IMG/VR virus record: IMGVR_UViG_3300008952_000024
From: an uncultured virus (IMG/VR IMGVR_UViG_3300008952_000024)
Taxonomy: Duplodnaviria > Heunggongvirae > Uroviricota > Caudoviricetes
Strand: one strand, 5' to 3'
Length of the DNA stretch: 64,000 nt
Shown here one piece after another: positions 9,539-60,295 of the stretch (the first letter of the stretch is position 1; the number at the start of each line of letters is the position of its first letter). The position numbers were made by a program, and so were the translations under genes. The notes under the pieces are model-generated. The model had not been told where the DNA came from. It saw nothing but the letters and a program-made list of their open reading frames with translations, and made no database searches.

Positions 9539-10286
9539 TCCTTTTGCTTCGAACTCTATCTGGCTGCATTATAGCAACACTATTTTCAGAATTGTTAGTC
9601 TCTACTCGTTTTGTTGGGGCTGGCTTTGCACTTTTATGCTTATAAATAACTTCCGGCTCACTAACTAGTCTTGGTGTAGAATGTTGTTTTTTAGAACCAA
9701 CAAAAAAACTACGACCCAACTCTGTTGCAATTTGTTGGTATGTCCGTGCTTTTAATGCATATAGGTCTACAAATGAATCTGGGCCAAGAGGCAAATCTAA
9801 AGTTCTAACTTCTCTTTTGTTTGCAACTTCAATTGCCAGCTTGTGTGCCCTCCTGCACCATTTTCTTAAATTCTTATCTGCATACTCTTGAGGCGGCACC
9901 ACCGGAAGAATAAGGATCGGATCTACATCTGCCGCATACACCATGCAGATCAAATGGTCCAGCATCCCCGCCCACGCATCTAATGGGATACCGCCACTCT
10001 TCGACTCACCTACGCCAACCCAAATAATTGCAGTATACCGGTCTGCCTCATAAGAAAACATGTCTGCAAAGGCATCTGCTGTGCTATTTACAACAGATTT
10101 AATTCCACCAAGAGAACCATGACTTAATACCGACCAGCATGTAGAAGGATCAAGCTCTGATAGCTCTATGAATAATCGGTTATTAAGACCACACAAATCT
10201 CGTGGCCCTTGCGCGTAATGATCACCAATGATTGATATAACGTTCTTTTTCATTGCATTAGCCACTGTTTGTTTTCTAACGTCCAC
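9525..10286 (-). CDS. SGNH/GDSL-like fold protein, catalytic motifs degenerate
   Basis: SIIGDHYAQG resembles block I (GDS becomes GDH); AIIWVGVGES resembles block III; PILILPVVP. Probable start MKKNVISIIGD. Confidence 0.45.
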   Translation of the reverse strand: MDVRKQTVANAMKKNVISIIGDHYAQGPRDLCGLNNRLFIELSELDPSTCWSVLSHGSLGGIKSVVNSTADAFADMFSYEADRYTAIIWVGVGESKSGGIPLDAWAGMLDHLICMVYAADVDPILILPVVPPQEYADKNLRKWCRRAHKLAIEVANKREVRTLDLPLGPDSFVDLYALKARTYQQIATELGRSFFVGSKKQHSTPRLVSEPEVIYKHKSAKPAPTKRVETNNSENSVAIMQPDRVRSKRSAHG

Positions 10287-11260
10287 TCAATCACTTCTCT
10301 CAACCTATCATTGAGAGACTTGCTTGGTTCCCATCCCAACTCTCGCATCTTATTGCCACATAAAGCATACCGTAAGTCATGCCCCGGTCGCGACGAATGA
10401 AAATCTACCATTTCGTAGATTAACTCTCCATTCATAATATCAGCAATGATCTGGCAAAGTTCTAAATTATCGGTTTCTCGTCTACCAACAATATTATATT
10501 TCTCGCCAACCTTGAAATTATCTACAAGAAATAGAACTGCATCAGCCACATCGTCTGCACTGATATAATGTCTAGATCCTGCTTTGGTACACTCTGAATT
10601 GGAATGTATATAGATCTTCTCTCCATCCCGAACCCTCTTGATTACTAGTGGAATAAACTTCTCTGGGTGCTGCCTTTTACCAAACACATTCATTGTATGG
10701 GTAACAACAATTGGCATCCCGTAAGTATTCTCGTATGCGATTGCCAACTCTTCCGCGCCCGCCTTCGTCGCCGAATATGGATTACCACTTTTATAACGGT
10801 CATCCTCTTTATAAAAGACTCCCTCTGGGGCCGTTCCAAATACTTCATCTGTACTAAAATAAAGAAACAACTTGAGACTATCGGATAAATGATTTCGTGC
10901 AAAATCTAAAATATTGCAAGTACCAACAACATTATCCATTACAAATTCCATAGGATTCTCGATGCTTCTATCTACATGAGAACCCGCCGCCAGATGGAAC
11001 ACATAATCGATTTTACCTATCTTCTCCGCCGTATAATCGTTGACAGGAGCCTTTAAGTCATGCCACACAACCCGAAGCCTACTTCGCCAATCCTGAACCA
11101 ACTGCTCTTTATTACAATCTAAAACCTCGGCCAAACGACCAAGCGTACCCGATGTATCCAGCCTATCTAATGAAACTATTTCCCAATCTGTACGTTTTAA
11201 TATGTGATGAATTAAGTGATGACCTATAAACCCAGCTCCACCAGTAATCAATACTCGCAC
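10250..11260 (-). CDS. rfbB: dTDP-glucose 4,6-dehydratase-like NAD-dependent epimerase/dehydratase
   Basis: TGGAGFIG, HLAAGSHVDRSI, STDEVFG, YSATKA, QHPEKFIP, RPGHDLRY: extended SDR RmlB signature. Confidence 0.9.
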   Translation of the reverse strand: MRVLITGGAGFIGHHLIHHILKRTDWEIVSLDRLDTSGTLGRLAEVLDCNKEQLVQDWRSRLRVVWHDLKAPVNDYTAEKIGKIDYVFHLAAGSHVDRSIENPMEFVMDNVVGTCNILDFARNHLSDSLKLFLYFSTDEVFGTAPEGVFYKEDDRYKSGNPYSATKAGAEELAIAYENTYGMPIVVTHTMNVFGKRQHPEKFIPLVIKRVRDGEKIYIHSNSECTKAGSRHYISADDVADAVLFLVDNFKVGEKYNIVGRRETDNLELCQIIADIMNGELIYEMVDFHSSRPGHDLRYALCGNKMRELGWEPSKSLNDRLREVIEWTLENKQWLMQ

Positions 11261-18695: not shown

Positions 18696-20342
18696 CTACG
18701 CAGAAAAATATCCACCACCACACTCGCTTACATCATAAGCGATTCTGTCATAAATACCAGCATGTCGGTAGTGGTCCGGTGCCTTGCCCTCGGTCCAGAC
18801 AATCCTACTCTTATTCTCGTTAAGCACTCTGACCGGCGCGCGCATTTGCTGTGACCAACCCAAAACAGTCAATGCGTCTTCTGGAAAGATTCTCGCACCA
18901 TCTTTAATCTCATCAAATGTAGCATCAAATACCTGCGTCCTATCTACGGTTACAACTCGAGTTTTATAATTTAGCTTCATACCATACCGCTGCTGACCAA
19001 CACGGGGCGTTGGGTGATACCGACATAGCCACACTTGGCAATTACCTTCTGTCTGAAACAAATCCCGAAGCTCCTGTGCCTTTCTCGTTTCTGGCATCGC
19101 GTCAATTACGCAACAGTCCACATGGTATCGCCTAATAATATCTGCAATTTCATTAAATGTTCGTACTGCACCAATATGTTTAGCTGTTCGGACAGTCTTG
19201 CCGTTTTCATCCTCACTCACAATGCTCAAAGCAAAATTTAATACTGAACCAACATCCACTCCAAGCGTAACGAGTCGTCCCAGATAATCTGAACCACCAC
19301 CATAATCTAACGATTCACCGATAGATGCATTGTTTAACATCTCCATTGTAAGCCTAGATCCACTAAATTCAAATGGAACCCCCAACACCGATGTATAGAA
19401 AGTGGACAACATCTCACTGTGTCCTTGCGCACTCATCCATTCCTTAAATAATGAGCGCAGATTTTCTGATGTAACATCTAATCGGCTAATCGTATAGCCA
19501 CGCCAATGCTCTTCTGTTTTTTTAGCGACCCAACACCCCTTTGCGGCTTCCCGATTAATTGGTTCCTTACATTTGATACAAATTGGCCGCACCCTACCAT
19601 CACCGAAGCCCCTGTCTGTGTCTCGCAGTTGCCAGTCGCCCCTATCGTTCTTTTCGATTATATTTGCAAACCAATCAATCGGTTGCCAATGATTGCAGTG
19701 ATCGCACTTGGTAAACCACGACCGCTGGTCGGTATGCTCATATAATCTAGATACACCCACACGAGGCATCGTTGGGTTTCCTAACCTAAACATCTGTGGT
19801 GCTGTCGAAGCACGGAGTCGGTCTTTTGCTTTCGCCAAGTTTGCTGGATCACATTGATCAAATTCATCAATAACTAAAATATCAGCGGAAAATTCAATAA
19901 AATCAGAAACGGTATTGGAACCAAGAAACATCATTGCCCCATTACCAAATCTTTTTAGCTTTAAGTTACCGGAGCCTTTACCATCGACTCCAGCCCTTGC
20001 CTTATACGCCGGTACGGTCTGCAATAATGGGTCTATTCTGTTCTGAACGAATCTATCTCTAATTGTGAATGTTGGCAGCACATAGGCACAAATTTTTCCG
20101 GCCCACCCAGCCCTCTCAAGAATTAGTTGGATAAACAGTTCCGACAAGCCTGTCTGCACCGCCTTGCGTATATCTGCGCCAGGAAGTTTGGGAAGATCTG
20201 TATACAGTTCTACCAAGTAGGGCTTGTCCTTAAAAGACATCGGTGCCCCACGAGTATTCTGGTGTGTTGTCATGGCAAGGTGGAACAGTGGATAACGATT
20301 TACTACTTGCGACATTAACGAATGGTATGCATTAGAATCCAC
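18696..20342 (-). CDS. Terminase large subunit (lambda GpA-like)
   Basis: KAVQTGLSE (Walker A variant), LVIDEFD (Walker B), GNPT, CxxC zinc motifs, GVDVG RNase-H motif, PDHYRHA. Confidence 0.92.
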   Translation of the reverse strand: MDSNAYHSLMSQVVNRYPLFHLAMTTHQNTRGAPMSFKDKPYLVELYTDLPKLPGADIRKAVQTGLSELFIQLILERAGWAGKICAYVLPTFTIRDRFVQNRIDPLLQTVPAYKARAGVDGKGSGNLKLKRFGNGAMMFLGSNTVSDFIEFSADILVIDEFDQCDPANLAKAKDRLRASTAPQMFRLGNPTMPRVGVSRLYEHTDQRSWFTKCDHCNHWQPIDWFANIIEKNDRGDWQLRDTDRGFGDGRVRPICIKCKEPINREAAKGCWVAKKTEEHWRGYTISRLDVTSENLRSLFKEWMSAQGHSEMLSTFYTSVLGVPFEFSGSRLTMEMLNNASIGESLDYGGGSDYLGRLVTLGVDVGSVLNFALSIVSEDENGKTVRTAKHIGAVRTFNEIADIIRRYHVDCCVIDAMPETRKAQELRDLFQTEGNCQVWLCRYHPTPRVGQQRYGMKLNYKTRVVTVDRTQVFDATFDEIKDGARIFPEDALTVLGWSQQMRAPVRVLNENKSRIVWTEGKAPDHYRHAGIYDRIAYDVSECGGGYFSA

Positions 20343-20653
20343 TATACCCCCAAAATACGCACTGGTTCGGGCTTATCGCCAATCACGCGCCAAACCTCAT
20401 AGTGGTGTCCATTCTCATCTTTATATACTTGAATACACAAACCAGCACGCCCAACAAAAGCCGTTCGTGATGCTGCCATCCGTGCAACTTCCAGTAGGTG
20501 CGAAAGTGTTTTCACATCCACATAAAACCGCACATCCCTACCTGCCTCTGGTCCACCAAACACCGTTTCCCGCACAAGCTCATGCTGGTTGGCTCGTTGC
20601 AGCGGATTATGATTTACTTTTAGCTGATACTTTGGATCTAGCGGATTCGACAT
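20342..20653 (-). CDS. Hypothetical protein
   Basis: 103-aa ORF coupled to the terminase gene; no recognisable small-terminase motif. Confidence 0.55.
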   Translation of the reverse strand: MSNPLDPKYQLKVNHNPLQRANQHELVRETVFGGPEAGRDVRFYVDVKTLSHLLEVARMAASRTAFVGRAGLCIQVYKDENGHHYEVWRVIGDKPEPVRILGV

Positions 20654-21216
20654 ATTTTCTCCCTTTCACGCTGACGCATTTCAAACTTTGAACGCATAGG
20701 TATATCAATACTATTCGGTGCTTCATTCCCGAACACATCCCACCCATCATCACTGTCTCTCGCAAACATTTCCAGCTTATTTTGGGTTGGAAACATCTTG
20801 CTTATTAATTTCCTAAAAATTTTTGGCTTTACGCTATGGGCACCCTTCTCTATCGAATAGTGCTGCCGAACATTCTGGGCACCTCGCGGTTTTGGAATGT
20901 TTCCACGTTTGCCGACGAGTACCAGCTCGCACATTGGCATTGTGTATTTTCCAAATGCGGGACGCTTCTTGTTCCAGATAAAGGCTATTGTTCTATACTT
21001 AAAGCCCCAAGCTGCCATTAACTCCAACGAATCCTCGAGCAAGGCTCCGCTGCTCCACATAAACAACAATGAGTTGTCGTCAGAAATACCTTCTACATTC
21101 ATACGCTTCATTTCATCAAGCGGCATCGTACAATATTCTTGTTGCCCCATAGTTGGGGCTGACGGTCTACCATAAGACCACGGGGGATCTGCATAGATAA
21201 CCCCGTACTTTTTCAT
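20638..21216 (-). CDS. MT-A70 family adenine-N6 methyltransferase
   Basis: VIYADPPWSY, LFMW, AWGFKYRT, HSVKP, LEMFAR, GWDVFGNE. Confidence 0.9.
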   Translation of the reverse strand: MKKYGVIYADPPWSYGRPSAPTMGQQEYCTMPLDEMKRMNVEGISDDNSLLFMWSSGALLEDSLELMAAWGFKYRTIAFIWNKKRPAFGKYTMPMCELVLVGKRGNIPKPRGAQNVRQHYSIEKGAHSVKPKIFRKLISKMFPTQNKLEMFARDSDDGWDVFGNEAPNSIDIPMRSKFEMRQREREKICRIR

Positions 21217-23001: not shown

Positions 23002-24273
23002 CTATTCTCCTCGTAAGTCCTGTAGTTGTTTTTTTAGTTGCTCTCTATTTTCTCCGTAATGGAGTTCTCGGTGGTGATTGGCACAAACGCAAACCATATT
23101 CTCCATCGTGTCTGGACCACCTTCCGCCATCATAATCAAATGGTGAACCTCTACATACGGTAGACCATCTGGCTTAATAAAAAGCTCTACCGCACAACCA
23201 TCGACCTCACACGCGTAACCAGCTCGCTTCTTAACCAAATCGACTAACTTATGGTTTCTCTCGTAACCACGCTCAACAACACGAGACTTTCTACGCGGCT
23301 CTAGGTTCTCCTCCAGTTTTGCTAATGCTTCAAGGTTGGCTAGAGTTTCGCGCCCCTCCTCTGTCAGAGCTATCCGCGTATCACCCTCTGGCTCTTGCGC
23401 AAAATTACGCATAATAAACTGATCAACGAGAAAGGCCCACCTCTCCAATGCATCTGGCGCATCAGCATCGAAGTCCACAGTTTCACCTGAAACAACCTGC
23501 GCACCATCAGCCCCATCGTACTCCACTCCAAGAGCAAGGGTGCCGGGTCCATGAAACTCTGGCGTAGCATAAACAGACACCCCAGAATACTCTGGGTTAA
23601 TAAGTTCAATTGTCAATATCTCTGGGTTGAGTGTTGGCACCCATCCCTGAACACCACCACTGGACAAAATCGCATCCGTTAATGTTGTAACTCCACTGAC
23701 TTGCTTACTAGCAAGCATAACCGGATCGCTATTAACAACATCCATCTGAATTTGGTGTTTCGGAGCGGGAAAAACACCCTCTGGCTCATCATCGTCTTTA
23801 TGCCACGACACGCCGGTAACATTACCCTCGTCATCCGTCATAACATTCACTTTGCCGTCTGGATGATTATTTCCAAAGTGCTCTGTCATAAAATCTATCA
23901 GTTCGTCTGGCTCATAACCACGATCGGATATATCCAAATATAAAGTCTTATCCTCATCATCTATTGCAATATTTTCCATTGGAATATCCAGATCACGCAG
24001 ATCTGGCTTTTCCTCTACCACGTCTGGCAAATGACCCCTTCTACGGGCACGACGTTTAGCAAGCAGCCTATTCCGTCGCTGCATTGCCTTATCTGCCCTA
24101 GAGTTCGGATGCTCCGCACCCATACCCGCCTCCTGCACATTAAAACCCTTACTGCCCCTCCTTTGAGCACGGTTACCGCCTCCACGCTCATTTGCTTGAC
24201 CAGCAGCACCCCTCTTCATTAAACCGCCCCCCTCGCTATCCCTCTTCCTACCTACAGCCCTTCGTTTTCCCAT
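23002..24273 (-). CDS. HNH endonuclease with long N-terminal extension
   Basis: C-terminal YERN...ACEVDGC...YVEVHHLIMMAEGGPDTMENMVCVCANHHRELHYG; Arg/Gly-rich N-terminus, acidic middle. Confidence 0.8.
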   Translation of the reverse strand: MGKRRAVGRKRDSEGGGLMKRGAAGQANERGGGNRAQRRGSKGFNVQEAGMGAEHPNSRADKAMQRRNRLLAKRRARRRGHLPDVVEEKPDLRDLDIPMENIAIDDEDKTLYLDISDRGYEPDELIDFMTEHFGNNHPDGKVNVMTDDEGNVTGVSWHKDDDEPEGVFPAPKHQIQMDVVNSDPVMLASKQVSGVTTLTDAILSSGGVQGWVPTLNPEILTIELINPEYSGVSVYATPEFHGPGTLALGVEYDGADGAQVVSGETVDFDADAPDALERWAFLVDQFIMRNFAQEPEGDTRIALTEEGRETLANLEALAKLEENLEPRRKSRVVERGYERNHKLVDLVKKRAGYACEVDGCAVELFIKPDGLPYVEVHHLIMMAEGGPDTMENMVCVCANHHRELHYGENREQLKKQLQDLRGE

Positions 24274-24506: not shown

Positions 24507-25157
24507 TTAACGACCCCACTGCATAGCCATAGCTTTGGCAATACCCACATACGTCTCTGACCGTATCCTCCACCTATCTTCCGATGGACCCAACACATTC
24601 TGACCACTCAATGTCTGATTGTCCCATACACCACATTTTGGGATCTTTAGAACATTCGTTGGCTGCAACGGCGGCAAACGCTTTAACCACAAACCCGTTT
24701 TCTTGGAATGAGGATGACCGAACTCATACGGATGGATATACTGGTCTGGTGGCCTAATCGCTGTTGAAATACGTCCTACAGGATTCTCAATACATATTCG
24801 GCCAATAGGCGCGTTCATCAAATGACGAACAAACTTTAATGCCTCTTCCGTCTTATGGCTCCGACCAAAACGACGCTTATTCCAATGTAATCCACTACCA
24901 GACAAATAAGTGCAAGGCGGATGAGCTATCATCAAATCCCAACCCTTATTTAGTACAAATCGTACATCACACTTGAGATGAGGACCGCCAACCACGCTTG
25001 GAAGCACATCGCAAGACCAAGCATCATGGCCACGCCGCAGAAATTGATCTCGCACAATCCCGCTGGATTCACATGCAACCAATACCCTCACAACGACTCC
25101 AAAAAAGAAATTTGCGGGACGGCTCGCTTCAAACAGCTTACCTGACGACACCCGCAA
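24507..25157 (-). CDS. Phage DNA cytosine-5 methyltransferase-like protein
   Basis: VLVACESSG (motif I variant), DLMIAHPPC (catalytic PC), IENP, KKTGLWL, RSETYVGIAKAMAMQW. Confidence 0.8.
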   Translation of the reverse strand: MRVSSGKLFEASRPANFFFGVVVRVLVACESSGIVRDQFLRRGHDAWSCDVLPSVVGGPHLKCDVRFVLNKGWDLMIAHPPCTYLSGSGLHWNKRRFGRSHKTEEALKFVRHLMNAPIGRICIENPVGRISTAIRPPDQYIHPYEFGHPHSKKTGLWLKRLPPLQPTNVLKIPKCGVWDNQTLSGQNVLGPSEDRWRIRSETYVGIAKAMAMQWGR

Positions 25158-25664: not shown

Positions 25665-26486
25665 TCAGGAAACCGGACCTTTTGCAAGCCATGACTTTAT
25701 GCTTTGGGGATCTATCGCTAATCTTACCATATGGACCCCAACTTTCGACTCAATCCTACCGGTCCAAGTCTGGGTCACACGGTCCACCCAGTTCGGGCCG
25801 GGGTTCAACACGTCCCTCAATGGACCAATCTGACCCCAACCAGCCCCATTAATACTTCCCACAGCCTCTAACGTCAGAATCTTATCCGTCGCCGGATCAT
25901 AATCCAAAACTATCAAACTATGACCACCACTAGAGGTAAAATACTGCAACAAGTATGCACCCTCACCGGGAGCCGTAGTACCCACACCCCACTGGAGTAT
26001 TACCCTCGGACCCCAGTTCGGCACCACCGGAACAGAACCACTGTCACTTGTGGAAACCATCCACAACTTCCACTGCTCACTTGTAAACGATACACCCTCA
26101 AAAGCATACGCCAACAACCAAGAAGTAAACTGCACGCAATTCGTCCACTCATCACCAATATTACGCAAACTCATTCCCGGTGGATTACTCGGACACTGGG
26201 CATCGCTTAAACGATACTCCTGCGGCAACATCTGTGGAAACAAGTCAGCCACCACTTGGAAGTCTATCGGCAAACCTAAATCCACACCACCACTACGCAA
26301 TGCATCCCAAGTCTTCGAACCCACAACACCATCCGCCACTAAACCACTAGCAGACTGAAAAGACTTCACATTCGCTTCCGTTCCCGAACCAAATACACCA
26401 TCCACCGTCGTCCGATAACCACTCTCGGTCAACAACGTCTGGCACTCCTTCACCTCTATACCACTGTCACCCTTACGCAATACCAT
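25665..26486 (-). CDS. Endolysin: peptidoglycan-binding domain plus Cys/His peptidase-like domain
   Basis: MVLRKGDSGIEVKECQTLL...DGVFGSGTEANVKSFQSASGLVADGVVGSKTW (PG_binding_1); TNCVQF...GGHSLIV...LEA suggests a CHAP/NlpC-like triad; ATG 26486 after GAGGAG. Confidence 0.8.
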   Translation of the reverse strand: MVLRKGDSGIEVKECQTLLTESGYRTTVDGVFGSGTEANVKSFQSASGLVADGVVGSKTWDALRSGGVDLGLPIDFQVVADLFPQMLPQEYRLSDAQCPSNPPGMSLRNIGDEWTNCVQFTSWLLAYAFEGVSFTSEQWKLWMVSTSDSGSVPVVPNWGPRVILQWGVGTTAPGEGAYLLQYFTSSGGHSLIVLDYDPATDKILTLEAVGSINGAGWGQIGPLRDVLNPGPNWVDRVTQTWTGRIESKVGVHMVRLAIDPQSIKSWLAKGPVS

Positions 26487-26923
26487 TACCAACTCCTCGA
26501 CACTAGCAAACCACCCACCGAACCAATCACACATAAAAGTATATCCCACCAATCAAATGTACCACGGAACATAGATAGACTTTGGAGGACTTCAATACAC
26601 CCTACAAGGCATCCCGGCAGTAAAACCGACCCAAGGTATATCCAACCCCCCTCGGATCGCCACAAACGGCAAAAGAATCCCGTACAGGCATATACCCATA
26701 CTCCTAGAGGCAAACTATAAACGAACCACAAAGGAAATAGGCTCCTATACGGATTCGCCAACTCCCTAACCCAACTCAATACACCGTCAGGACGGTAGCA
26801 CCCCACCGCGCCCATTACTTCAAATATGAGCAAATGGTCTGGACGCCACAATAAATAGATAATCGACCCCAAACAAATTGGGATAACACAATTCCAAAGG
26901 AAAAATTTTCTATTTACAGGCAA
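26486..26923 (-). CDS. Multi-pass membrane protein
   Basis: About four hydrophobic segments; SLPLGVW and EVLQ...GTFDWWD motifs. Confidence 0.6.
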   Translation of the reverse strand: MPVNRKFFLWNCVIPICLGSIIYLLWRPDHLLIFEVMGAVGCYRPDGVLSWVRELANPYRSLFPLWFVYSLPLGVWVYACTGFFCRLWRSEGGWIYLGSVLLPGCLVGCIEVLQSLSMFRGTFDWWDILLCVIGSVGGLLVSRSW

Positions 26924-27002
26924 AACGTAGAAAGGAGGACAAAACCCCCCACGGCGTAGATGGTGACCAACACTTTAGAATCTAAATTAAACATGGAACC
27001 TC

Positions 27003-27302
27003 CTAAATAAATTTAGCTATCAGCCCGGTTACGGAAAGCACCAGACCTATATAGGCCAAACGCTTCGCACGGGTCGCGGTACTGTATGCGTCTCCCAAGT
27101 TATCCCGTTTGATTTTGTAATCAAAATGTTGGAGCGGGCTTAATTTGGGTATGGCTTCAAAGAAGTCGGGACAATCACGCTGTTCGTACTCATCTTGTCG
27201 CGCCAAACGGTGCTGATACCACAAACAGACCCCAGAATACTTATTTTCATGGTGTTCATCGGGGTATTTATTATATAGGCCACATCGACCACATCTAGCC
27301 AT
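27003..27302 (-). CDS. Cys-rich protein with C-terminal TM helix
   Basis: CGRC...C...C plus hydrophobic C-terminus. Confidence 0.55.
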   Translation of the reverse strand: MARCGRCGLYNKYPDEHHENKYSGVCLWYQHRLARQDEYEQRDCPDFFEAIPKLSPLQHFDYKIKRDNLGDAYSTATRAKRLAYIGLVLSVTGLIAKFI

Positions 27303-27303
27303 T

Positions 27304-27531
27304 CTATTGCCCCATACACGGTATCAAGCTCTCACCTGCGTCGGATACTATCACAACCGTATTGGGGAGTATACGGTCTACTACCCAACCATCTGCCAGC
27401 TCTAACCCTTCACTAAAGGCTCTACAATGCGGAATGTCACCAAATAAGAGGTAGGACTCCAAAGGGGAGTGGCTATGAGGGCTACAGTTTATGAGAATAG
27501 TCATCATGGTTAGGATTAGGAACATTTGCAT
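27304..27531 (-). CDS. Small putative exported/lipoprotein
   Basis: Hydrophobic N-terminus ending LINC. Confidence 0.4.
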   Translation of the reverse strand: MQMFLILTMMTILINCSPHSHSPLESYLLFGDIPHCRAFSEGLELADGWVVDRILPNTVVIVSDAGESLIPCMGQ

Positions 27532-27694
27532 TACTCGGAGGGTAGGGAGAGGCGGCTACATATATCAGCCAACAGCAACATCTTACAAGTAATGGGATGA
27601 CGCCAAATGTAAACACCCACCCTACTAAAACGTAAAAAGATACAACTAATGCTAACTCGAAAGATCCTATGTAGTCTGGGTTAGATGTGTACAA
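27482..27694 (-). CDS. Small membrane protein
   Basis: Hydrophobic 70-aa ORF. Confidence 0.3.
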   Translation of the reverse strand: MYTSNPDYIGSFELALVVSFYVLVGWVFTFGVIPLLVRCCCWLIYVAASPYPPSNANVPNPNHDDYSHKL

Positions 27695-28987
27695 ATTTTA
27701 CCGGGGAAAAGATTAAAAATACCTTGGTCCCCCCACGGGGGACTATGGGGGAAGAATAATTTTATATAAATAGATCTTAATACAAATCATATATCTCTTA
27801 ATATATCTTATTATATATCTATTATTCTCACAATGGGCATATCGACCTTTAAACCCCCATTATAAGAGGGGTAAATTATACAATTATCTCTAAAACAGGT
27901 TTAATGGATAAACTTATAAGGGGTATAGACTCACTAGGTCCAAAAATTTTAGAAAAAAAAATTCAAGACTCACTAGATGATAAAAAGTATGAAAAATCGG
28001 TCGGCAGGAGGTGTCCCTCAAATATCATATTCTTGGAATCATATTCTGTAGGGGGGAGAGGTGAGGTTCAACCTATGATATGAGGCATTACCTCATGTGG
28101 ATTCTAGGGTCATCATATCTATTGGCAATGGCAACTATCATACTCTCCTGGCCCATATCATAGGTTGTAAGGTCATTATCATAGGATAAACCCCTATAAA
28201 ATAGGCCAAAATCATAGGGCATAGGCGGTCCAAAGTGGGCATATACCCTCATTAATAGGCATATCACCAACATCATATTCATAGGCACAAAGGGATATTC
28301 CTACTACAACCATTCATATCCTTTGAGCGCTCATGGTGTTTCTAGGGAACGGCCAATATCATAGGACTCCCCTCCACTATGGTGTGGGTCTACCCCATAC
28401 AGGTTTCACCAATTCATATCCAATATCCAATAAACATAGGTCATAACTTCACTTTCATAGGCTAACTCAACCTTCCTATTCATAGGTACAACATACTCAA
28501 TCTGTCATTCCTGGCCTACAACCTACATTTATTCCATACACAGGATTTCAAACCATATCCTACCATCGGCAAAAGTTGGCTAGGTAATTACCATATCATC
28601 AAAAGGAAAATAATTTTCCTATTATCGGCTCCCATATCCATACTCTCAATTCTATAAAAGGGGGCTGGCATATGCGGCATTGTACCTACAAAATCGGCTA
28701 TTTGGCTCAAAATTTTAATATCTATCAAACGGCTATTAATACCCTTCCATCCATGTCAATACTCGGTTCAATCATATTCATACCATCAACCTCATATCTC
28801 ATATTCTCACCATACAATCCCCCACCTACCAACACCAATAAACATACCCTTTACAGGCTCACATTACCCCCTGGAGGGACTTCACCGGCAATCTGCGGGT
28901 CTGGGCAAGGGTAAACCCCTTGGACGGCTTCTGGGGGCATTCTAGGGGCTACAATCGGCATGGTTGGTTTGGTGGGTCAATATACAG

Positions 28988-29190
28988 GATAGGATCGGTC
29001 CATATCCATACTCGGATCGGATACCGGATCGGATCGGATCATAGGGCTAGGGTCCACGGAATAGGGGATACAGGCTATCCCTAGGATCATAGGGACCGGA
29101 TACAGGGAAACCCGGCACCATAGGATAGGGACCGGGTTCATAGGGCTAGGGATCGGATCATAGGGGATCGGATCGGATCATAGGGATCCC
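28988..29190 (+). repeat. GGATC / CATAGGG repeat array
   Basis: About 12 GGATC and several CATAGGG units, e.g. GGATCGGATCGGATCATAGGG. Confidence 0.85.
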
Positions 29191-29228
29191 CAAACCAAAA
29201 TACCCCTATCCGGTTAGGGATAGGGGTA
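29191..29228 (-). terminator. Rho-independent terminator
   Basis: 11-bp stem TACCCCTATCC / GGATAGGGGTA (29201-29228), followed on the minus strand by TTTTGGTTTG. Confidence 0.7.
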
Positions 29229-29360
29229 CTGGGGATCGGCTAGGCTATCGGGTTAATCGGTTACACAACTCCACACGGATAATAGGATCAGGAAGGTATA
29301 AAGGCTTGGCAGGGTAATCACAAGGTTAATCATAGGGTACTCCAATAGGGGCTAGGGGTG

Positions 29361-29386
29361 GCCCCTACCCGGTATTGGGTAGGGGC
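29361..29386 (-). terminator. Hairpin just downstream of the island gene
   Basis: Perfect 10-bp stem GCCCCTACCC-ggtatt-GGGTAGGGGC; no U-tract. Confidence 0.5.
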
Positions 29387-29402
29387 TAGGGGTTAGGGGT
29401 TA

Positions 29403-30047
29403 TTACTTGGCTAGGGATTCACGGGAAACCAATTCCCATACCAACAAACCATTGGGATCAATTGGGGTATCCTTATCGGTGGGATTGGTATTCTCTACGG
29501 TCCAAACCATATCCTTCCCGGTTCCAAATAATCCCTTGGTGGAAATGGAATACAGGGCTTTATGGCCACTATTGGCTCTCTTACCGGGTTCTTTGGTAGG
29601 GTTACCAAAATACTCTTTATATTTCACACAGGATACGGGAAACCCACGGGCCAACATATCGGCATGGGAAACCATAATACAGGTTTCACCGGTATCACCT
29701 ACCAATTCGGTCAATAGGGATACAACCCGGTCTAGGAATTTTGGCTTCGGGGTATTTTTCCGGATTTTGGCTACTTTGGCCTCAATTACCTTCATGGCAA
29801 AATCCCATACATTGGTGGGATCATCGGAAAACTTACCTATTCCCAACTCATTACAGGGACCGGCATACTTCATATCACCATAACGGGTAACCTTGGAATA
29901 CAGGGGATCGGCTACTAGGGCCGGTCCAAAATTATCTCGGGTCCAATCGGTGGATTCACATATGGCGGATACAATATCCTCAATTCGGAAACCGGTTAGG
30001 GCTAGGATTAGGGTAGGGGTTTCAACTTTTTTATTGGCTTTGGCCAT
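29403..30047 (-). CDS. Orphan 214-aa protein encoded entirely inside the GG island
   Basis: ATG 30047 (MAKANKKVETP) after an AAAGGAAG RBS; downstream hairpins; shares a motif with the 47494..48744 protein. Confidence 0.75.
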   Translation of the reverse strand: MAKANKKVETPTLILALTGFRIEDIVSAICESTDWTRDNFGPALVADPLYSKVTRYGDMKYAGPCNELGIGKFSDDPTNVWDFAMKVIEAKVAKIRKNTPKPKFLDRVVSLLTELVGDTGETCIMVSHADMLARGFPVSCVKYKEYFGNPTKEPGKRANSGHKALYSISTKGLFGTGKDMVWTVENTNPTDKDTPIDPNGLLVWELVSRESLAK

Positions 30048-30547
30048 TTCATCACTTCCTTTCAATTTGGGATCATTCCCAACCGGTCGGGACTCATTCC
30101 CTATCGGCACAACCATAATAACCGGATATGGAAATAATTCATAAACATAACTAACCGGAAAATCATACACCGGGAATAAACATAGGGAGAACCGGCAATA
30201 TCATCGGCTCAAAATAATTCTTTTTTTTTTATATTCCAAGGATCACCTCAAAATATCCAATTTTTAATCGGCCTATTCCATAGGATGTAACTACAATATC
30301 CTTTGGCACCACGGCATTTCAATCCAGGCTATTCGGTTATATGGTAGGAAGGAAGGGGATTTATCGGGATAGGGTCCACCAGGTATCCTATTAATTCGGG
30401 TATTGGATGGGGGCAAAATCGGATCGGCTCAAAATCGGGCCATTCATACCTCTATATATAGGGACAACAAAATCATACATACCCATTCTGGCCATATCAT
30501 AGGGTCTAACTACCATACCTCTGGAATGGATGGATATTCCATATCCT

Positions 30548-30770
30548 AGGATCTCGGATCATAGGGGATCGGATCAAAATCATAGGATCTCGGATCTTTC
30601 ATATTTTGGATTTCAAAATCATAGGATCTCGGATCTCAAAATATCAGGATCTCAAAATCATAGGATCGGATCAAAATCATAGGATCGGATCAAAATCATA
30701 GGATCTCGGATTTTCAATATCTCGGATCTCGGGATCATAGGATCGGCCAAAATCGGATCGGATTTCGGTC
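30548..30770 (+). repeat. Iteron-like array of CAAAATCATAGGATC with dense GGATC
   Basis: 15-mer at 30575, 30614, 30653, 30672, 30691 (spacing 39, 39, 19, 19); about 18 GATC sites. Confidence 0.9.
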
Positions 30771-31255
30771 GGAAAAATTTTGTCCCGGTCATGGAAAATA
30801 TTGTCCCAACCTCCAAAATTCCTAGGATTCACATTAAGGGTACTAGTGGCACGGTCAAGGGAAAATCCACCCTTAAAGGATATTCTAGGGCCACTAGTGA
30901 CGAGGCAACCGGCCCAAAACCGAGGCTGCATAGGAATGAAGTTGTCCTCTTTTTCTGGGAGAAAATAAATAAGTTTAGCGCTTAATAAAAACGTTTACGT
31001 TTTTATTATTCATATTCCTAAATCCAGGCCCCAGCTCTCTTTTGGAAAACTTTTGAAGTTCTCTGTCGGACAAAATCCGAAGCGCTTACAAATTCACCGA
31101 AGGCGAGCGCTGAAAATAAATGACGATGAAAGAAAAAATATGCCGTCACGGTGAAGCTGTGCCCCGTGGCAGAGCGCTCGAGCGCTAACCAAGAAAACGA
31201 ATCCAGAAAAAGAACCTCGATTTAAGTTGGCTAACCAAATTTGAGCGGCCAGCTT

Positions 31256-31350
31256 TTTGGCCAAGTTTTGAGCTGGCGTTTGAAGTTTGCGTTTGTCGAG
31301 TGCGTGTGAGTGTCGCCGCGTGCGCCGCGCGTCGTGTTTGGCCAAGTTTT
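31256..31350. other. Candidate genome terminus / cos-like site
   Basis: 14-bp direct repeat TTTGGCCAAGTTTT (31256 and 31337) brackets a GC-rich core GTCGCCGCGTGCGCCGCGCGTCG in non-coding DNA; terminase is GpA-like. Confidence 0.3.
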
Positions 31351-31741
31351 AAGTGGAGTTTGTATTAAATTAAATTAATAATACTCAATACTATATATAA
31401 TATATAATACATTATAACTACATTATAGTAAGTTTTGAAAGTCTCTCACTCACCCCCATTAAAGTTGACACTCAACTCTGCTCATACCCTTACTTAAAGT
31501 GTATAGGTTTTTTAATTTTAAGTAATGGCACCGACAAATCATTTTAATTTTCACCCTACCCCTAACCACCAACAACCAGTCAAAACCTCACCACGGGGCC
31601 GTTAGGCGGCCGATACGGTACAAGTACGGGCACCCCACTCCTCCTACCCCCTCCTACCCCCTACCCTACCCTACTGGGTACGCCTCCGACCTATATACAG
31701 AATTTGTTATGGTTTTTAGCTTGGAGCGTATTGGATATTGA

Positions 31742-31753
31742 AACTAGGGGGGT
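31742..31753. promoter_or_regulatory. Dispersed motif AACTAGGGGGGT, copy 1 of 4
   Basis: Exact 12-mer also at 32025, 38268 and 50159. Confidence 0.6.
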
Positions 31754-32024
31754 ATAAAAGACAGGGTGTTGAGGGGAAGGCGACCATAATCACATTATCC
31801 GTGTGTACAGCGCGGTTAAAGTGAACAACATGGGCATGGTTGTCTATCCCCCCAACACTGTGGCCATACCCCCGTATAAAGATCCTATCGGCACACCCAA
31901 CCTTCTATTTAACGACAAACATCACTGTTAAAGAAAGCTGGTGGTCCGAATATATAGGTATAGGTATACATATACTCATTCAGGATTTTTTTTGAAAATC
32001 AAACCCCCGAAGTTCGAAAAACGA

Positions 32025-32036
32025 AACTAGGGGGGT
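32025..32036. promoter_or_regulatory. Dispersed motif AACTAGGGGGGT, copy 2
   Basis: Just downstream of the last early-gene stop (32065). Confidence 0.6.
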
Positions 32037-32064
32037 TAAAATAGGTGGTTATTCGAGGTTTAGT

Positions 32065-32562
32065 TTAGTATGGGTGCTCTTCACGGAAGTAATACGGAAT
32101 ACCTACACGTTCCCCCATTACTTGTATAGTTACATCAGTCTCTACTAGAAGTCCGTTGCAGCAAAGGTCACCGAGGTAATCTTCTACGATTTCCTCTAGG
32201 GTTTCGTATCCCTCAACGGTATCTTCGTTTATCCCACAAAGAAACTCAACCGCATCGTCGCGGTCAGACACAAGATCAGGCTCCTCCCGCTTTAGCAGGA
32301 TTACTAACCCTTCTACGATTTGATCTATATTCGCCATGTATTGGTGGTGGTACTTATCGACTCGGTAACCACCATTTACGACGGAGCCACCGCTATGGGC
32401 GTTAATGGTTTCCAACGCCGCACGAAATACTATTGTCCGTGCCAACAAATATGGGAGTCCAGAACCTCCCGGTTCAGCATCGACCTTCACACTATCTTTC
32501 CAGAGATTTTCCTGGGCATAGTTGAGGGTTCTATCTTGTAACGTTTGTACGGGTCTAGACAT
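32065..32562 (-). CDS. Hypothetical early protein
   Basis: N-terminus MSRPVQTLQDRTL is duplicated in the upstream gene. Confidence 0.65.
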   Translation of the reverse strand: MSRPVQTLQDRTLNYAQENLWKDSVKVDAEPGGSGLPYLLARTIVFRAALETINAHSGGSVVNGGYRVDKYHHQYMANIDQIVEGLVILLKREEPDLVSDRDDAVEFLCGINEDTVEGYETLEEIVEDYLGDLCCNGLLVETDVTIQVMGERVGIPYYFREEHPY

Positions 32563-35998: not shown

Positions 35999-36134
35999 TC
36001 ACCTCCGATTTATTCACCCAACGGCGAATCATCCCCTCATAGGGATGGTAATATTCAATACGGATTCGCTCCGTACCAACTTCCAAAATATGCCCTCGGC
36101 GGTTGCCGAACATTACTGCATCACCACGCTTCAT
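35988..36134 (-). CDS. Small beta-rich (SH3-like) protein
   Basis: MKRGDAVMFGNRRGHILEVG; ATGA overlap at 36131-36134. Confidence 0.5.
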   Translation of the reverse strand: MKRGDAVMFGNRRGHILEVGTERIRIEYYHPYEGMIRRWVNKSEVSDA

Positions 36135-36766
36135 CGCTGGCTCCCAATGATCCGCACTGCGGTTTCCATATCTGTTGGGGTGGTTCCATGTGGAACCAAC
36201 ACCATTCGGGAGTCCCGATGGCGGTCGGTATTCCAAGTCACCGGTTCGAGGAGCCAAAAGGCACCATGAATCATCTCGGTTTGGTAGTTGTCATCATCAA
36301 CAATCACTGAAAATTCTGTGGTTTTCAGTTCATCTTGGATCTCTGGGAGACATATATGGGCCAATTCACATACGGCCCAATTAATCGTTTCCTCATAGGA
36401 ATTGAAGAGGTAATAATGGCCGTAGGCATTATCATACTCATCCAAATTACTATAATACTCATAAACGTCTGCCATCAGTTCCGCTACGAACCCTTGGATT
36501 GCCAGAGCTTCGGTTGGCGGGCAGTTGCCGTTCATCACGGCTACGAGGGTACGGGACACCAAGTCCCATTCGGCCTTCTCAAGATCATCTCCCTCCACCT
36601 TGTGGAGCAGGATGGAGGCGAGAACTCCTGGCCCCCACAGTTCTCGGACGGTATGGCCGTGGCTGCTTTCGGCTAAATATTCTTCGAGGATAACCCCCGA
36701 AATTTCAACACCTTTCTTCGTGGCTCGGCCACCAAAAGAGTACATACGGTTCTCAAAATGTTTCAT
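36131..36766 (-). CDS. Hypothetical protein
   Basis: Start MKHFENR downstream of the sigma70 promoter at 36832-36860. Confidence 0.6.
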   Translation of the reverse strand: MKHFENRMYSFGGRATKKGVEISGVILEEYLAESSHGHTVRELWGPGVLASILLHKVEGDDLEKAEWDLVSRTLVAVMNGNCPPTEALAIQGFVAELMADVYEYYSNLDEYDNAYGHYYLFNSYEETINWAVCELAHICLPEIQDELKTTEFSVIVDDDNYQTEMIHGAFWLLEPVTWNTDRHRDSRMVLVPHGTTPTDMETAVRIIGSQR

Positions 36767-36831
36767 TTTTTCATTCCTATTCTCATGTGGGTTCAACGTG
36801 GGTTTCAACTTATCTTCCAACTTAACACCCT

Positions 36832-40036: not shown

Positions 40037-40381
40037 TCATAACGTGGACTCAAGATTATACGCATATTCATGATTCTCTATCAAGACCTTCGCCATTTCC
40101 GCCCAATTAACTTTATCAAGAGCACACTTAAACAGGACTTGCGCCCACGGGGCCATATCTTTATGCCACCTAAATCTCTTTAGATCGCGGTTAAATTCGG
40201 ACTTTATAAAATCCGCCAGCTCTGCTGTTGCCGCATCACGACGCGAAAATACACTGCATCGCTTATGGTTGTTGTATATAACCGGCACCTGACGCTGGAT
40301 AATATGATAACACTCGTACTCATTACCAATGAATACCCACATATGCATCGTTTCTACGTTTGACCACTCGCTACCCATCAC
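40037..40381 (-). CDS. Hypothetical protein
   Basis: 114 aa, GGAGG RBS, ALDKVNWAEMA segment. Confidence 0.6.
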   Translation of the reverse strand: MMGSEWSNVETMHMWVFIGNEYECYHIIQRQVPVIYNNHKRCSVFSRRDAATAELADFIKSEFNRDLKRFRWHKDMAPWAQVLFKCALDKVNWAEMAKVLIENHEYAYNLESTL

Positions 40382-41040
40382 TACCTCCTAGCTATTAATC
40401 GCACCAACGCCTTCCTGTCCTTCTTAAACAGAGGCAAAAACCACCGATCTCTCGGCGAAGTCTTAATACATGTAAACCCAAGCTCATCCCTAGCCGCCGC
40501 TATAGATATGTCCTTTCGCTTTGCCAGTCTGTAGGCCACCCTACGGTGCCTACGAACACCATCTTTGTCAACTACATGCATCTCGGCCTTGGTCTTGCCA
40601 ATATGGATATAGTTAGCCGCCTTATACAAGGTGCCAGTATGCCCTTGGTCGGGATCTGAAAAGCTGATCACATACCTAACTCTATTTTCATCTCGCAATA
40701 CACGATGGCAACTAGACATAAACCTAGTCATTGGATATTTTTCTTTCGGACTAGACCTAGCAAGTCTCTTCAACTCAACCAAGTTCTTTAACGTCACCGT
40801 GAGTCCTGTCACCCTAGTTAAATAACTCTCTTGGTATGGGTTCACGCCATTTCCAAATACCGCCACTGCATACAAAACTGTATTCTTATACAAGCCGAAA
40901 CAAATATTGCGGCCCCGTGGCATACACCCACTGTAATGCCACCTAACAACATGGGCAGATGCCTCATCATAACCTATACGCACACACAACCAACAGTCTG
41001 ATACTGCTGGCCGCTTCCGTGAAAATAGGTCTAACTGCAA
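40381..41040 (-). CDS. Mom-family (GNAT-fold) DNA adenine-modifying protein
   Basis: VRWHYSG, FGLY...AVAVFG, VELKRL, VISFSDPDQGHTGTLYKAANYIHIG: motif order of the Mu Mom family. Confidence 0.78.
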   Translation of the reverse strand: MQLDLFSRKRPAVSDCWLCVRIGYDEASAHVVRWHYSGCMPRGRNICFGLYKNTVLYAVAVFGNGVNPYQESYLTRVTGLTVTLKNLVELKRLARSSPKEKYPMTRFMSSCHRVLRDENRVRYVISFSDPDQGHTGTLYKAANYIHIGKTKAEMHVVDKDGVRRHRRVAYRLAKRKDISIAAARDELGFTCIKTSPRDRWFLPLFKKDRKALVRLIARR

Positions 41041-56086: not shown

Positions 56087-56215
56087 CTAGAAACACCCCG
56101 CCTTTGACAATAACAAAATAAACCCACCAAGACTTAACAATGATATGCCAAGTGAAACTGACATGGCAATTAATAATCTGGATGACTCTTCTATAGTTGG
56201 TTTTTTATTTTCCAT
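56087..56215 (-). CDS. Small TM protein
   Basis: MENKKPTIEESS plus hydrophobic C-terminus; start overlaps the queD stop. Confidence 0.45.
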   Translation of the reverse strand: MENKKPTIEESSRLLIAMSVSLGISLLSLGGFILLLSKAGCF

Positions 56216-56649
56216 CAATCTTCCCTCATTGAAAAATCTGCCCAACAATTGGGGGTTTCGTACACCCGTATTGCTGCTGTTTTTACACCATATGGCGTTA
56301 ATAACTCGTTGCTTTTCATGTACAGATACTCTGCCATGTTCTCCGCTGTCGGGTTGCTCGGTAATATATACAATTTCCAATTCTGTTCGTTGCATAGATT
56401 AATAATCTCCCCATCGTTAGTATTGACAATTGTTCCGTGATCCCACTTTTCATCAAGCCACTTGCCAAACACGGCTTTGATCACACCAAAATCGATTACC
56501 CGTCCAAGCTCATCTAGTCCCATAGAACACGCGGTCACCTCAACCACATACCTGTGACCATGTAGGTTTCTACACTTACTCTCATGTAGCATGACCCTGT
56601 GTGCGGCATCAAACTCAAGTTTCCTCGTACAATACCGCAGTCCACTCAT
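56215..56649 (-). CDS. queD: 6-carboxytetrahydropterin synthase
   Basis: FDAAHR, KCRNLHGHRY, VIDFG, WDH, NPTAENMA, VYETP. Confidence 0.93.
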   Translation of the reverse strand: MSGLRYCTRKLEFDAAHRVMLHESKCRNLHGHRYVVEVTACSMGLDELGRVIDFGVIKAVFGKWLDEKWDHGTIVNTNDGEIINLCNEQNWKLYILPSNPTAENMAEYLYMKSNELLTPYGVKTAAIRVYETPNCWADFSMRED

Positions 56650-57338
56650 CGTGCTTTTCTCCAGTCTTTAAGCATTGCGTCAATAACCACACCAACATCC
56701 GTGGTATCTAAAAACTTTGAATAAGCTTCAAATATCTGCAACCACCGCCCATAAACATCCATAGTTACCTTCCCCCGAAGGTTGCCTACCGTAAACATAG
56801 CAAATCTATGGTCCACATAAGTCTGTTCTGGCCGCTTGTGGGATCTGGTACTACCATCACCCTCTTCTTTGTTGCTGGATTCTTCTGGTGTCGTTTCTAC
56901 TGCATCAGCCAACGCACGCAAATCTGATAATGTAGCAGCATCAAAACCAGTAAGGTTCAGATCGTCAAACTCTGGGTCCACTAAATTATCAAGCTCCTCA
57001 ATATAATTTGGAAGCATTGACCAATCCCAGTCACCATCGCTCTGGTTGTCTCGTATGGCCACCATTCGGGCTTCTTGCTCTGTCCCTTCAAAGTACACCA
57101 CCGGGATGGTGTCTGGCACCTTTTCGCCCCTACCAAGCATCTCCTTTATCACATCAAGGCGCTGATTTCCCCCAATGACCACCGCCTCCTTGTCTGGGTT
57201 TTGCCAAACAAGGAGCGGCTTAAACAGACCAAATGCACGCAGGGATTCACGAAGTCTTCTACGCCCCTTTCCGTCAATGGTTCGCGGGTTATCCGCTAAT
57301 GGTCGTAATTTTTCTACACTTACATAATTAATCTGCAT
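56646..57338 (-). CDS. ParB/Srx N-terminal domain protein, paralogue 2
   Basis: DNPRTI...SLRAFGLFKPLLV...VIGGNQRL...IRDN...GDWDW. Confidence 0.85.
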   Translation of the reverse strand: MQINYVSVEKLRPLADNPRTIDGKGRRRLRESLRAFGLFKPLLVWQNPDKEAVVIGGNQRLDVIKEMLGRGEKVPDTIPVVYFEGTEQEARMVAIRDNQSDGDWDWSMLPNYIEELDNLVDPEFDDLNLTGFDAATLSDLRALADAVETTPEESSNKEEGDGSTRSHKRPEQTYVDHRFAMFTVGNLRGKVTMDVYGRWLQIFEAYSKFLDTTDVGVVIDAMLKDWRKAR

Positions 57339-59716: not shown

Positions 59717-60295
59717 CTATCTACTTTCACGTTCCACAAGTGCTAAAAACTCTGCTCTAGTTTCTGGGTTTTCCCTAAATCGACCATACATCGCCGAGGT
59801 GGTCATCACCACATTTGACTTTCTTACGCCCCTAGTCGTCATACAGTGGTGCTTCGCCTCTACCACAACTGCTACCCCTAGTGGATCTAGTACCTCGGAG
59901 ATCGCATCTGCAATCTGTCTGGTCATCTTTTCCTGTATTTGCAAACGCTTACTATACAGTTCGACAACTCGAGCTAATTTTGAAATACCCACCACTTTAT
60001 CTTTTGGTAAATACCCAACATGGGCAACACCGATAATCGGCACCATGTGGTGCTCACAATGTGATTGGAAGTCTATATTGCTCAATAAAATGATTTCATC
60101 ATAACCATTACTTTCTGAAAACGTCCTTGATAAAACATCATGCGGGTCTTGCCCGTATCCACCAAACCATTCACTATATGCTTTCGCTACCCGCTTCGGA
60201 GTATCCAATAATCCCTCTCTCATTGGATCATCACCAGCATATCGCAACAGCGTTCTAATGGCGTTTTCTGCCTCTTCTTTACTAACCTCACTCAC
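59717..60295 (-). CDS. folE: GTP cyclohydrolase I
   Basis: [44 protein letters not shown]. Confidence 0.96.

Follow-up and report, generated by a model that had tools for sequence, protein, structure and literature searches.

We examined a 64,000-nt window of DNA (IMG/VR record IMGVR_UViG_3300008952_000024) from a tailed, uncultivated marine siphophage; all coordinates below are positions in this window. The subject is an island on its plus strand, at 28896-30781, from which lone (single) G, defined as G with a non-G base on both sides (HGH), is almost completely excluded. Every recognised gene of the window is on the minus strand. One real gene lies within the strict domain of the island, also on the minus strand, and a lone G of the plus strand corresponds to a lone C of its sense strand and transcript. 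Arrays of short repeats flank the gene. The features of the locus are as follows.

28159-28486, plus strand: repeat array A, with 9 CATAGG cores, outside the strict domain and in the G-poor flank
28896-30781, plus strand: strict domain, every G with a G neighbour (188 G-runs, 2 single), kept in the relative L131
28993-29190, plus strand: repeat array B, downstream of the gene, with CATAGG cores every 20 nt and GGATCGGATC runs; an extra core is at 29331
29199-29230, minus strand: terminator-like hairpin with a 13-pair stem and then TTTTGGTTTG; it lies within the strict domain, on the downstream side of the gene (consensus scan only)
29340-29402, plus strand: tract of G clusters (TAGGGGCTAGGGG ... 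TAGGGGTTAGGGGTT) immediately beyond the stop codon
29403-30047, minus strand: gene for a 214-amino-acid orphan protein, identified from the open reading frame, homologues and codon recoding
30055-30061, minus strand: AAGGAAG, a Shine-Dalgarno-like element 7 nt upstream of the ATG at 30047 (read from the sequence)
30181 and 30279, plus strand: extra single cores beyond array C
30189 and 30287, plus strand: the two exceptions, lone G in AGA and in TGT respectively, both in the interval that separates the gene from array C
30498-30760, plus strand: repeat array C, upstream of the gene, with (A/T)TCATAGG cores at 19-39 nt steps and GGATC between them
30842-30898: inverted repeat with perfect 9-bp arms, ACTAGTGGC / GCCACTAGT, which are 39 nt apart and lie some 60 nt beyond the right edge (read from the sequence)
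31411-31449, minus strand: two overlapping sigma-70-like promoter matches (TATAAT), AT-rich (guanine-plus-cytosine (GC) content 0.36) and directed toward the island (consensus scan only)

Between 28896 and 30188 (1293 nt, 339 G) there is no lone G, and there are two in the whole domain (1886 nt, 459 G), at 30189 and 30287. These are exactly the counts given in a first-pass annotation of this DNA, made from the sequence alone. The 188 G-runs of the island have lengths of one (2 runs), two (121), three (47), four (16) and five (2). Elsewhere in the window (positions 1-27000 and 32001-64000), 6473 of 8340 G-runs are single (77.6%). Against this background the binomial probability of two or fewer singles in 188 runs is 1.3e-117, and the depletion is thus significant. 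Each of the nine HGH triplets would be expected 18-29 times, but seven (TGC, CGC, AGC, AGT, TGA, CGT and CGA) are absent and the other two (TGT and AGA) occur once. Within the island, 134 non-single G-runs follow one another without a break; the maximum for any base is 11 in related phages and 23 in about 0.8 Mb of other viral loci. These control loci were drawn from at least 118 chance matches to the pattern ATCATAGG..ATCATAGG and were used only as control DNA. The longest G stretch within them, 21 consecutive non-single runs on a giant-virus metagenome-assembled genome contig (L057, 4899-5080), is probably a simple repeat.

The other bases of the plus strand are used normally in the island (217 lone C, 293 lone A and 274 lone T), and the other strand keeps 217 lone G. 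The rule is therefore specific to one strand, and we agree with the first-pass annotation that it is not palindrome avoidance. Coding and non-coding DNA are both covered, as also claimed there: the gene, arrays B and C and the terminator-like hairpin all lie inside the strict domain.

A 300-nt sliding count places the strict zone at 28.9-30.8 kb. The right border is abrupt. The first lone G is at 30782 and the next at 30803, and 94 are present in 30782-31500. Conservation of the lone G at 28895 in a relative (see below) marks the left border as discrete, too. The flank at 28000-28895 is G-poor, with 20-30% of its runs single, and 15 lone G are found in 28081-28895. Many of the flank lone G are conserved between strains, and lone G is therefore tolerated in 28000-28895. 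The ban had been described as fading in a gradient. This fits the G-poor left flank with its reduced share of single runs, but not the edges of the strict zone, which are both discrete. The leaks in the left flank are, as noted earlier, mostly HGT (9 of 15, against 33% in the background), TGT alone accounting for 7 of 15, and the first two leaks past 30781 are likewise TGT.

Normalised for G content, the ratio of single runs falls from 0.95-1.0 at a distance to a weak dip of 0.77-0.92 over 22-28 kb and to 0.12 in the island; immediately to the right of the island it is back at 0.93, and a second dip to 0.77-0.80 occurs at 35-38 kb. The broad dips at 22-28 kb and 35-38 kb may reflect a different codon usage of the variable region. 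One open reading frame in the latter (36131-36820, minus strand, 229 amino acids, no known family) has a half-strength bias: 22 of its 36 NCN codons are NCC, and 52% of its C-runs are single.

The gene is fully recoded to fit the ban. The mechanically called open reading frame has 255 codons and begins at a GTG at 30170, whereas both homologues of the protein begin at the ATG at 30047, which leaves 214 codons. In this 214-codon gene all 44 of the Ala, Thr and Ser NCN codons are NCC, compared with 6-61% in 31 other open reading frames. Over the 255-codon frame, Ala is GCC in 15 of 15 cases, Thr is ACC in 18 of 18, Ser is TCC (12) or AGT (3), Tyr is TAT in 10 of 10, and Gln is absent. CTN and CGN codons are kept, but solely behind a codon ending in C. 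Back-translation with the codon usage of the phage gave 67.2 +/- 5.5 lone C (minimum 45 in 20,000), against none observed. When the gene's own synonymous codons were permuted, 14.9 +/- 2.0 lone C were obtained, and none of 20,000 permutations reached zero. Therefore, the placement of codons respects codon junctions. Ala, Thr and Ser occur at normal frequency in the product, and the gene contains 146 C where back-translation predicts 114. The protein family looks to have been shaped by the ban as well, as His and Gln make up 10 of its 636 residues, compared with 5.5% in the phage. Codons for Lys, Glu, Gln, Met and Trp cannot end in C, and none of the 10 His and Gln residues follows one of these amino acids (background 22.9%; probability by chance about 0.07). 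A cause at the level of translation or tRNA was rejected, because 1.2 kb of non-coding repeats obey the ban.

The same phage is represented by record G001, which departs from the window at 4 of 44,624 bases (99.99% identity). Contigs of a public run, X1, which is perhaps the source sample, cover 28548-29380, 29604-29983 and 29986-30634 with no differences. In the same run the summed contig depth at 31374-31640 is 79.7, compared with about 3-8 in neighbouring bins, as if this segment were shared with more abundant DNA. No public RNA run is listed for the island. Lack of read support had been named as a sign of assembly artefact, and the X1 contigs give no such sign. A sequencing or assembly error, for example mis-expansion of G homopolymers, would be in keeping with the run lengths, which after subtraction of one (121:47:16:2) resemble an ordinary distribution. 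However, the 214 codons form an open frame that matches two homologues from end to end with no frameshift, only G on only one strand is affected, and an independently assembled, diverged relative obeys the ban. We therefore reject this explanation and give it practically no credence.

The ban is maintained across strains. Three further seawater studies (X5, X6 and X9) contain a relative that is about 90-94% alike on the flanks and arrays, and the loose contig ends that reach into the domain have no lone G in 8 complete runs. At 80% likeness or above, no contig from these studies was found on 29505-30038 (29238-30038 in X5 and X6) and none bridges the gap, so that nothing firm follows on the presence of the gene. 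Such a relative was also assembled independently in two Joint Genome Institute metagenome contigs, L129 and L131, the latter from a different metagenome than the window. L131 aligns to window positions 26007-29333. Across 28896-29320 the alignment has 43 substitutions and 31 columns with gaps, an identity of about 83%, and yet none of the 53 G-runs of L131 is single. Random placement of the same types of substitution yields 9.8 +/- 2.2 lone G, and zero was reached in 0 of 2000 trials. In the alignment, G gains adjoin existing runs (GGGC to GGGG) or come in pairs, and losses are paired. The effect is weaker in the flank at 28100-28895, where 19 lone G are observed against 27.5 simulated (14 of 2000 trials as low), and there is no effect on lone G in the control segment 26600-27900 (355 of 2000 trials). 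Identity to L131 drops toward the gene, from about 92% to 90% and 83% in three successive segments.

These substitutions bear on an explanation in which the lone bases were erased by mutation: a deaminase- or glycosylase-like mutator would convert lone C or G on an exposed strand, and selection would only preserve the protein. The same end state would be expected, and the island does diverge faster than its flanks. However, there is no excess of transitions at G (A-G changes between strains are 5 of 43 in the strict zone and 27 of 97 in the control segment). The G content of the island is up rather than down, the C content of the gene exceeds the prediction, and Ala, Thr and Ser remain at normal frequency. 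We consider such erasure very improbable. The first-pass annotation had placed an attack or mutator of this kind at an exposed genome end, but the island is interior both to the window and to the 44.6-kb record G001, and the strain comparison shows no deaminase-like excess.

The repeats are concentrated at the locus. Of the 18 copies of ATCATAGG in the window, 17 are in 28000-30800, all in the same orientation, in three arrays around the gene. In the same interval 26 CATAGG cores were counted (0.7 expected), and GATC occurs 38 times (10.6 expected). Inside the arrays the cores are spaced by 19-21 nt, with GGATC interleaved, and an array with a 39-nt period (4.4 copies) lies immediately upstream of the gene. 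AT-rich tracts (GC content 0.28-0.36) occur at 27.8, 30.2 and 31.4 kb. Together, the arrays and the gene resemble iterons with their binding protein, an arrangement seen at origins of plasmids and phages, and the module would most likely serve as an origin or in maintenance. An inverted repeat of 19 nt (89%; 28069-28087 and 28149-28167) at the left end of array A holds the sole reverse CCTATG of 28000-30800. At 31296-31336 a GC-rich, mostly alternating purine-pyrimidine tract (GTGCGTGTGAGTGTCGCCGCGTGCGCCGCGCG...) adjoins the AT-rich segment 31356-31430 with two TATAAT matches. The promoter and terminator scans did not exceed shuffled sequences (16 matches against 13.3, and 4 against 4.9). No Rfam match was found in 26500-32500, and no tRNA was found. 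In an IMG/VR relative whose endolysin is 69% identical, a dense GGTTGGA(C/G)GTTGGA array occupies the contig end upstream of the lysis genes (L009, 1-450). This is a different repeat in an analogous place, with no lone-base ban.

The island has a G content of 24%, compared with 18% elsewhere, and a GC skew of +0.06, compared with -0.20. Folding of RNA, scored against mononucleotide shuffles, gave z values of -4.1 to +0.5 for island segments and -2.2 to +0.25 for controls, and no helical or other global periodicity of G was detected beyond the repeat period. One rival explanation of the ban is a structural requirement. An origin primed by transcription might rely on G clusters to form an R-loop, G-quadruplex or i-motif, and the ban would then be a side effect of selection for clusters. 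The skew, tracts such as TAGGGGCTAGGGGTTAGGGG and the origin-like features (iteron-like arrays, GATC clusters, AT-rich tracts) are in keeping with this. However, a need for clusters forbids no lone G. The unbroken series of 134 runs, the codon choice that takes account of junctions, and persistence across about 17% divergence point to exclusion rather than enrichment. The lack of G periodicity also counts against the structural requirement, as does the orientation of the recognised genes, all of which run the opposite way, so that a G-rich transcript is not predicted. We judge it improbable.

The protein encoded in the island has few relatives. Among about 15 billion proteins we identified only three clusters: the window's own, P0002 (43%) and P0003 (38-40%), the last encoded on a contig of up to 85.8 kb. 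The protein aligns end to end with both homologues. A Pfam search at E up to 10 recovered no family for any of the three members, and a search of PDB sequences returned four weak hits, with neither RepE nor Pi among them. An AlphaFold2 model from the 3-row alignment has a predicted local distance difference test score (pLDDT) of 85.4. In the model, the N-terminal half looks helical and the C-terminal half winged-helix-like. Neither PDB nor BFVD yielded a Foldseek match at E <= 0.001. In a wide structural scan (VIA) the top match was the Pi initiator on iteron DNA (2nra_C; Z 5.7, 78 aligned residues, root-mean-square deviation 3.7) and the second was RepE on operator DNA (2z9o_A; Z 5.4, 79 aligned, 4.3); as these Z values fall in the range of possibly common arrangements, we describe the product as a probable winged-helix-type DNA-binding protein and not as a member of Rep_3. 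The matches cover residues ~101-210 and correspond to the second winged helix of Pi and RepE, with other winged-helix proteins next in rank. The N-terminal half matches only generic helical and helix-turn-helix DNA-binding domains (Z 3-4).

Among viral contigs the gene was found in the same phage only, and it was not found in metagenome contigs or prokaryote genomes. Searches of GenBank phages and plasmids gave chance-level matches only (E 0.02-0.3), and a search with a 19-mer of the island matched two unrelated contigs. At 29990-30020, inside the gene, the peptide TPTLILALTG is encoded on the sense strand by CCCTACCCTAATCCTAGCCCTAACC, which consists of telomere-like units (CCCTAA); the two homologues vary in this segment or lack it.

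Elsewhere in the window the following recognised genes are encoded.

Tape measure, capsid and portal genes, minus strand
18696-20342, minus strand: large terminase
23002-24273, minus strand: HNH
25665-26552, minus strand: endolysin
56215-56649: QueD
58064-59095: DpdA
58989-59705: QueC
59717-60295: FolE
60292-61062: QueE

To the right of the island are genes for Mom-like and sigma-like proteins, a MoxR ATPase, two ParB-like proteins, DpdA, QueC, FolE, QueE, QueD and a helicase/primase fragment. The large terminase has only about 25% identity to that of any cultured phage. The Mom-like protein is encoded at 40381-41040 and the two ParB-like proteins adjoin each other at 56646-58095; the window further encodes an MT-A70 methyltransferase (20638-21216) and another DNA methyltransferase (24507-25157). 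As these accompany the deazaguanine genes, several DNA modifications are likely in this phage. A 960-amino-acid family-2 glycosyltransferase and a GDP-mannose-dehydratase-like epimerase are encoded among the head and tail genes (5437-8319 and 10250-11260).

Three related phages, G002 (76 kb), G003 (85.8 kb) and G004, have terminases that are 61-72% identical to that of the window. None has a homologue of the gene, an island (at most 9 consecutive non-single runs) or a counterpart of 27-37 kb. G003 carries FolE, QueE, QueC, DpdA and QueD, and G002 is without this set. The first-pass annotation had proposed comparing relatives with and without dpdA, and the island is lacking in both the dpdA-carrying G003 and the dpdA-less G002. 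The island and gene are therefore an accessory module in a variable region, one that does not travel with dpdA.

The absence of the gene and of the entire 27-37 kb region from these relatives would also be expected if the ban were an imported signature, that is, if a mobile or exchangeable cassette had been shaped in another genetic context and had no function in this genome. The climbing divergence from L131 toward the gene, the existence of only three protein clusters, and the half-strength bias of the open reading frame at 36131-36820 fit with this. On the other hand, importation merely shifts the cause elsewhere. Strains that differ by about 8-17% have the module at the same location and both obey the ban, and no insertion-type flanking repeats were found beyond AT-rich matches at 27765 and 31359. 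We think importation distinctly unlikely.

The other proposal that depends on these relatives concerns DpdA. tRNA-guanine transglycosylase, a relative of DpdA that acts on tRNA, recognises U-G-U. The first-pass annotation had suggested that the plus strand, as the template of the island gene, is kept free of, or saturated with, the context modified by the phage DpdA. In one form of this idea, DpdA would exchange lone G, and the plus strand of the island would be kept free of 7-deazaguanine or of a covalent DpdA-DNA intermediate. The reason could be that this strand is the template of an immediate-early gene, or that it is exposed at an origin. The rule does concern G, and the part of the proposal that holds is that the phage encodes the whole set of FolE, QueD, QueE, QueC and DpdA, in addition to two ParB-like proteins. 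A covalent enzyme-DNA intermediate has been proposed for DpdA, which may need local single-stranded DNA, according to one report (PMC10164549). However, G003 has the same deazaguanine set without the island or gene, and it is the only dpdA-carrying relative examined (1 of 1). The published contexts do not match either. The mapped contexts are GA and GGC in CAjan (PMC7544227) and GA in iggy (PMC10484667), and the constrained strand has 89 GGA and 45 GGC that would still be hit. On the opposite strand of the island 217 lone G persist, and TGT, the nearest DNA match to U-G-U, is the most tolerated leak in the flank. We regard this use of DpdA as having only a small chance of being correct.

We tentatively favour, as a plausible reading that falls short of probable, purifying selection against an agent that, during a single-stranded state of the module, attacks any lone C in its sense strand (a lone G in the template). 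In such a scheme, selection would purge plus-strand G without a G neighbour throughout a discrete 1,886-bp domain. The module would be self-contained, with one fast-evolving gene for an orphan, DNA-binding-type protein between (A/T)TCATAGG/GGATC arrays in steps of about 20 bp. A lone C in the sense strand, or a lone G in the template, would be the target of an enzyme that reads one strand, and a single hit would be harmful. The near-total strictness suggests that a single site is harmful, like a cleavage or base-attack site, and the one-strandedness suggests a single-stranded substrate or an asymmetry between template and non-template. The module might be attacked as a transcript, which by itself we consider unlikely though worth serious attention, or as a displaced DNA strand at an origin or R-loop, to which we give somewhat less weight. 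Pairs of CC or GG would not be substrates, and the sequence would therefore have been rewritten in an alphabet of A, C, T and GG or longer. Once lone G is forbidden, GG could not lose one G by a point change, while runs could still grow. This would account for the raised G content, with no separate requirement needed. The attacking enzyme might be the phage's own DpdA acting on single-stranded DNA, or a host nuclease or base modifier specific for lone C.

Several points weigh against selection by an attacking enzyme acting on such a module. We know of no enzyme that attacks C (or G) only where it lacks a like neighbour, and this specificity is postulated. Family and defence searches recognised no nuclease or deaminase among the window proteins. 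The strict domain extends about 300 nt beyond the terminator-like hairpin and matches no obvious transcription unit, and both exceptions to the ban sit between array C and the gene. The comparison with an independent relative covers about 425 nt of the strict domain, and the maintained rule could also stem from exchange with an allele pool shaped elsewhere. With respect to an origin or maintenance function, none of the window's 23 DnaA-box-like sites is in 27-32 kb. The gene product has no protein family match in Pfam, PHROGs, NCBIfam, PADLOC, PDB sequences or the ESM Atlas, and its likeness to known folds is weak (Z < 8) and concerns the winged helix only.

If attack on lone bases is the cause, the ban would reveal a nucleic-acid-targeting specificity outside the current catalogue of defence, toxin and modification systems, one that reads whether a base has a like neighbour rather than a motif. 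It would also show that a phage can escape by rewriting both the coding and the control sequence of a locus completely. The island would then be the first natural example of an entire gene, together with the control DNA on its flanks, synonymously recoded against a mononucleotide-context attack, and a ready-made probe for finding the enzyme. The locus offers a natural experiment, in which one protein is encoded with or without lone C, and it supplies a search rule, namely long one-strand stretches of non-single runs of one base. If the ban were tied to insertion of 7-deazaguanine, it would be the first sequence-encoded, strand-specific hole in the modification pattern of a phage DNA.

The first-pass annotation knew of no described element of this kind, and we found no report of a lone-base ban in open-access papers and preprints. 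The ban matches no known element. The nearest are motif-avoidance footprints and iteron origins, and neither predicts the pattern. It is possible, if doubtful, that the island represents a restricted alphabet on one strand of a replication or maintenance module, imposed by an undescribed enzyme that harms a base without a like neighbour.

Type III toxin-antitoxin (ToxIN) loci and their phage mimics have a repeat array upstream of a gene. The 39-nt-period array upstream of a gene of about 200 codons is similar in arrangement. Unlike ToxIN, the locus has a second array downstream, a predicted fold that is helical plus winged-helix, and no PHROG, Pfam or PADLOC match, and no chain of ToxN/AbiQ type is among the listed fold matches. 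The DpdA systems of CAjan and iggy resemble the present case in that a G-specific, context-dependent DNA enzyme is involved and the phage has the same kind of gene set. However, the contexts known there are defined by the 3' neighbour, apply to both strands and include G inside GG, and a local ban on lone G of one strand is not predicted.

mRNAs that lack ACA exist in nature. The island is comparable to a transcript free of mRNA interferase sites, since its sense strand contains ACA once and GCU, GCA, ACU and ACG not at all. Several interferase motifs have a central lone C, namely ACA for MazF, UAC or ACN for ChpB, and GCU for MqsR (PMC8546651). Unlike avoidance of such sites, however, the ban excludes all nine contexts, extends to non-coding arrays, leaves 18 UAC (as UACC) and has ACA as its commonest edge leak. 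A transcript without isolated C, resistant to MazF- or MqsR-type or phage RNases, had been suggested in the first-pass annotation. The sense transcript does have this composition, but because the edge leaks are mostly TGT (ACA in the transcript) and the 18 UAC remain, a motif of MazF or ChpB type alone is not the driver.

Iteron origins such as those of R6K (Pi) and F (RepE), to which the O gene and origin of lambda may be added as a further iteron origin with its initiator gene, share more of the architecture. Same-orientation repeats at steps of about 20 bp flank a gene for a protein of winged-helix type, GATC clusters and AT-rich tracts are present, and the module varies between related phages. 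Unlike these origins, the locus has no Rep_3 sequence match, only the C-terminal winged helix of its protein aligns, and weakly, and no DnaA boxes were found. To our knowledge, no known origin shows a lone-base ban.

Footprints of motif avoidance include restriction-site avoidance in phages, the one-orientation Type III sites of T7, and the dinucleotide depletion attributed to APOBEC and ZAP in animal viruses. As in these cases, a short context appears to be purged by selection against an enzyme, synonymous codons carry the change, and an asymmetry between strands is possible. The known footprints involve defined motifs and are genome-wide and partial. In contrast, any lone G is avoided here irrespective of which bases flank it, on one strand, over 1.9 kb and nearly completely.

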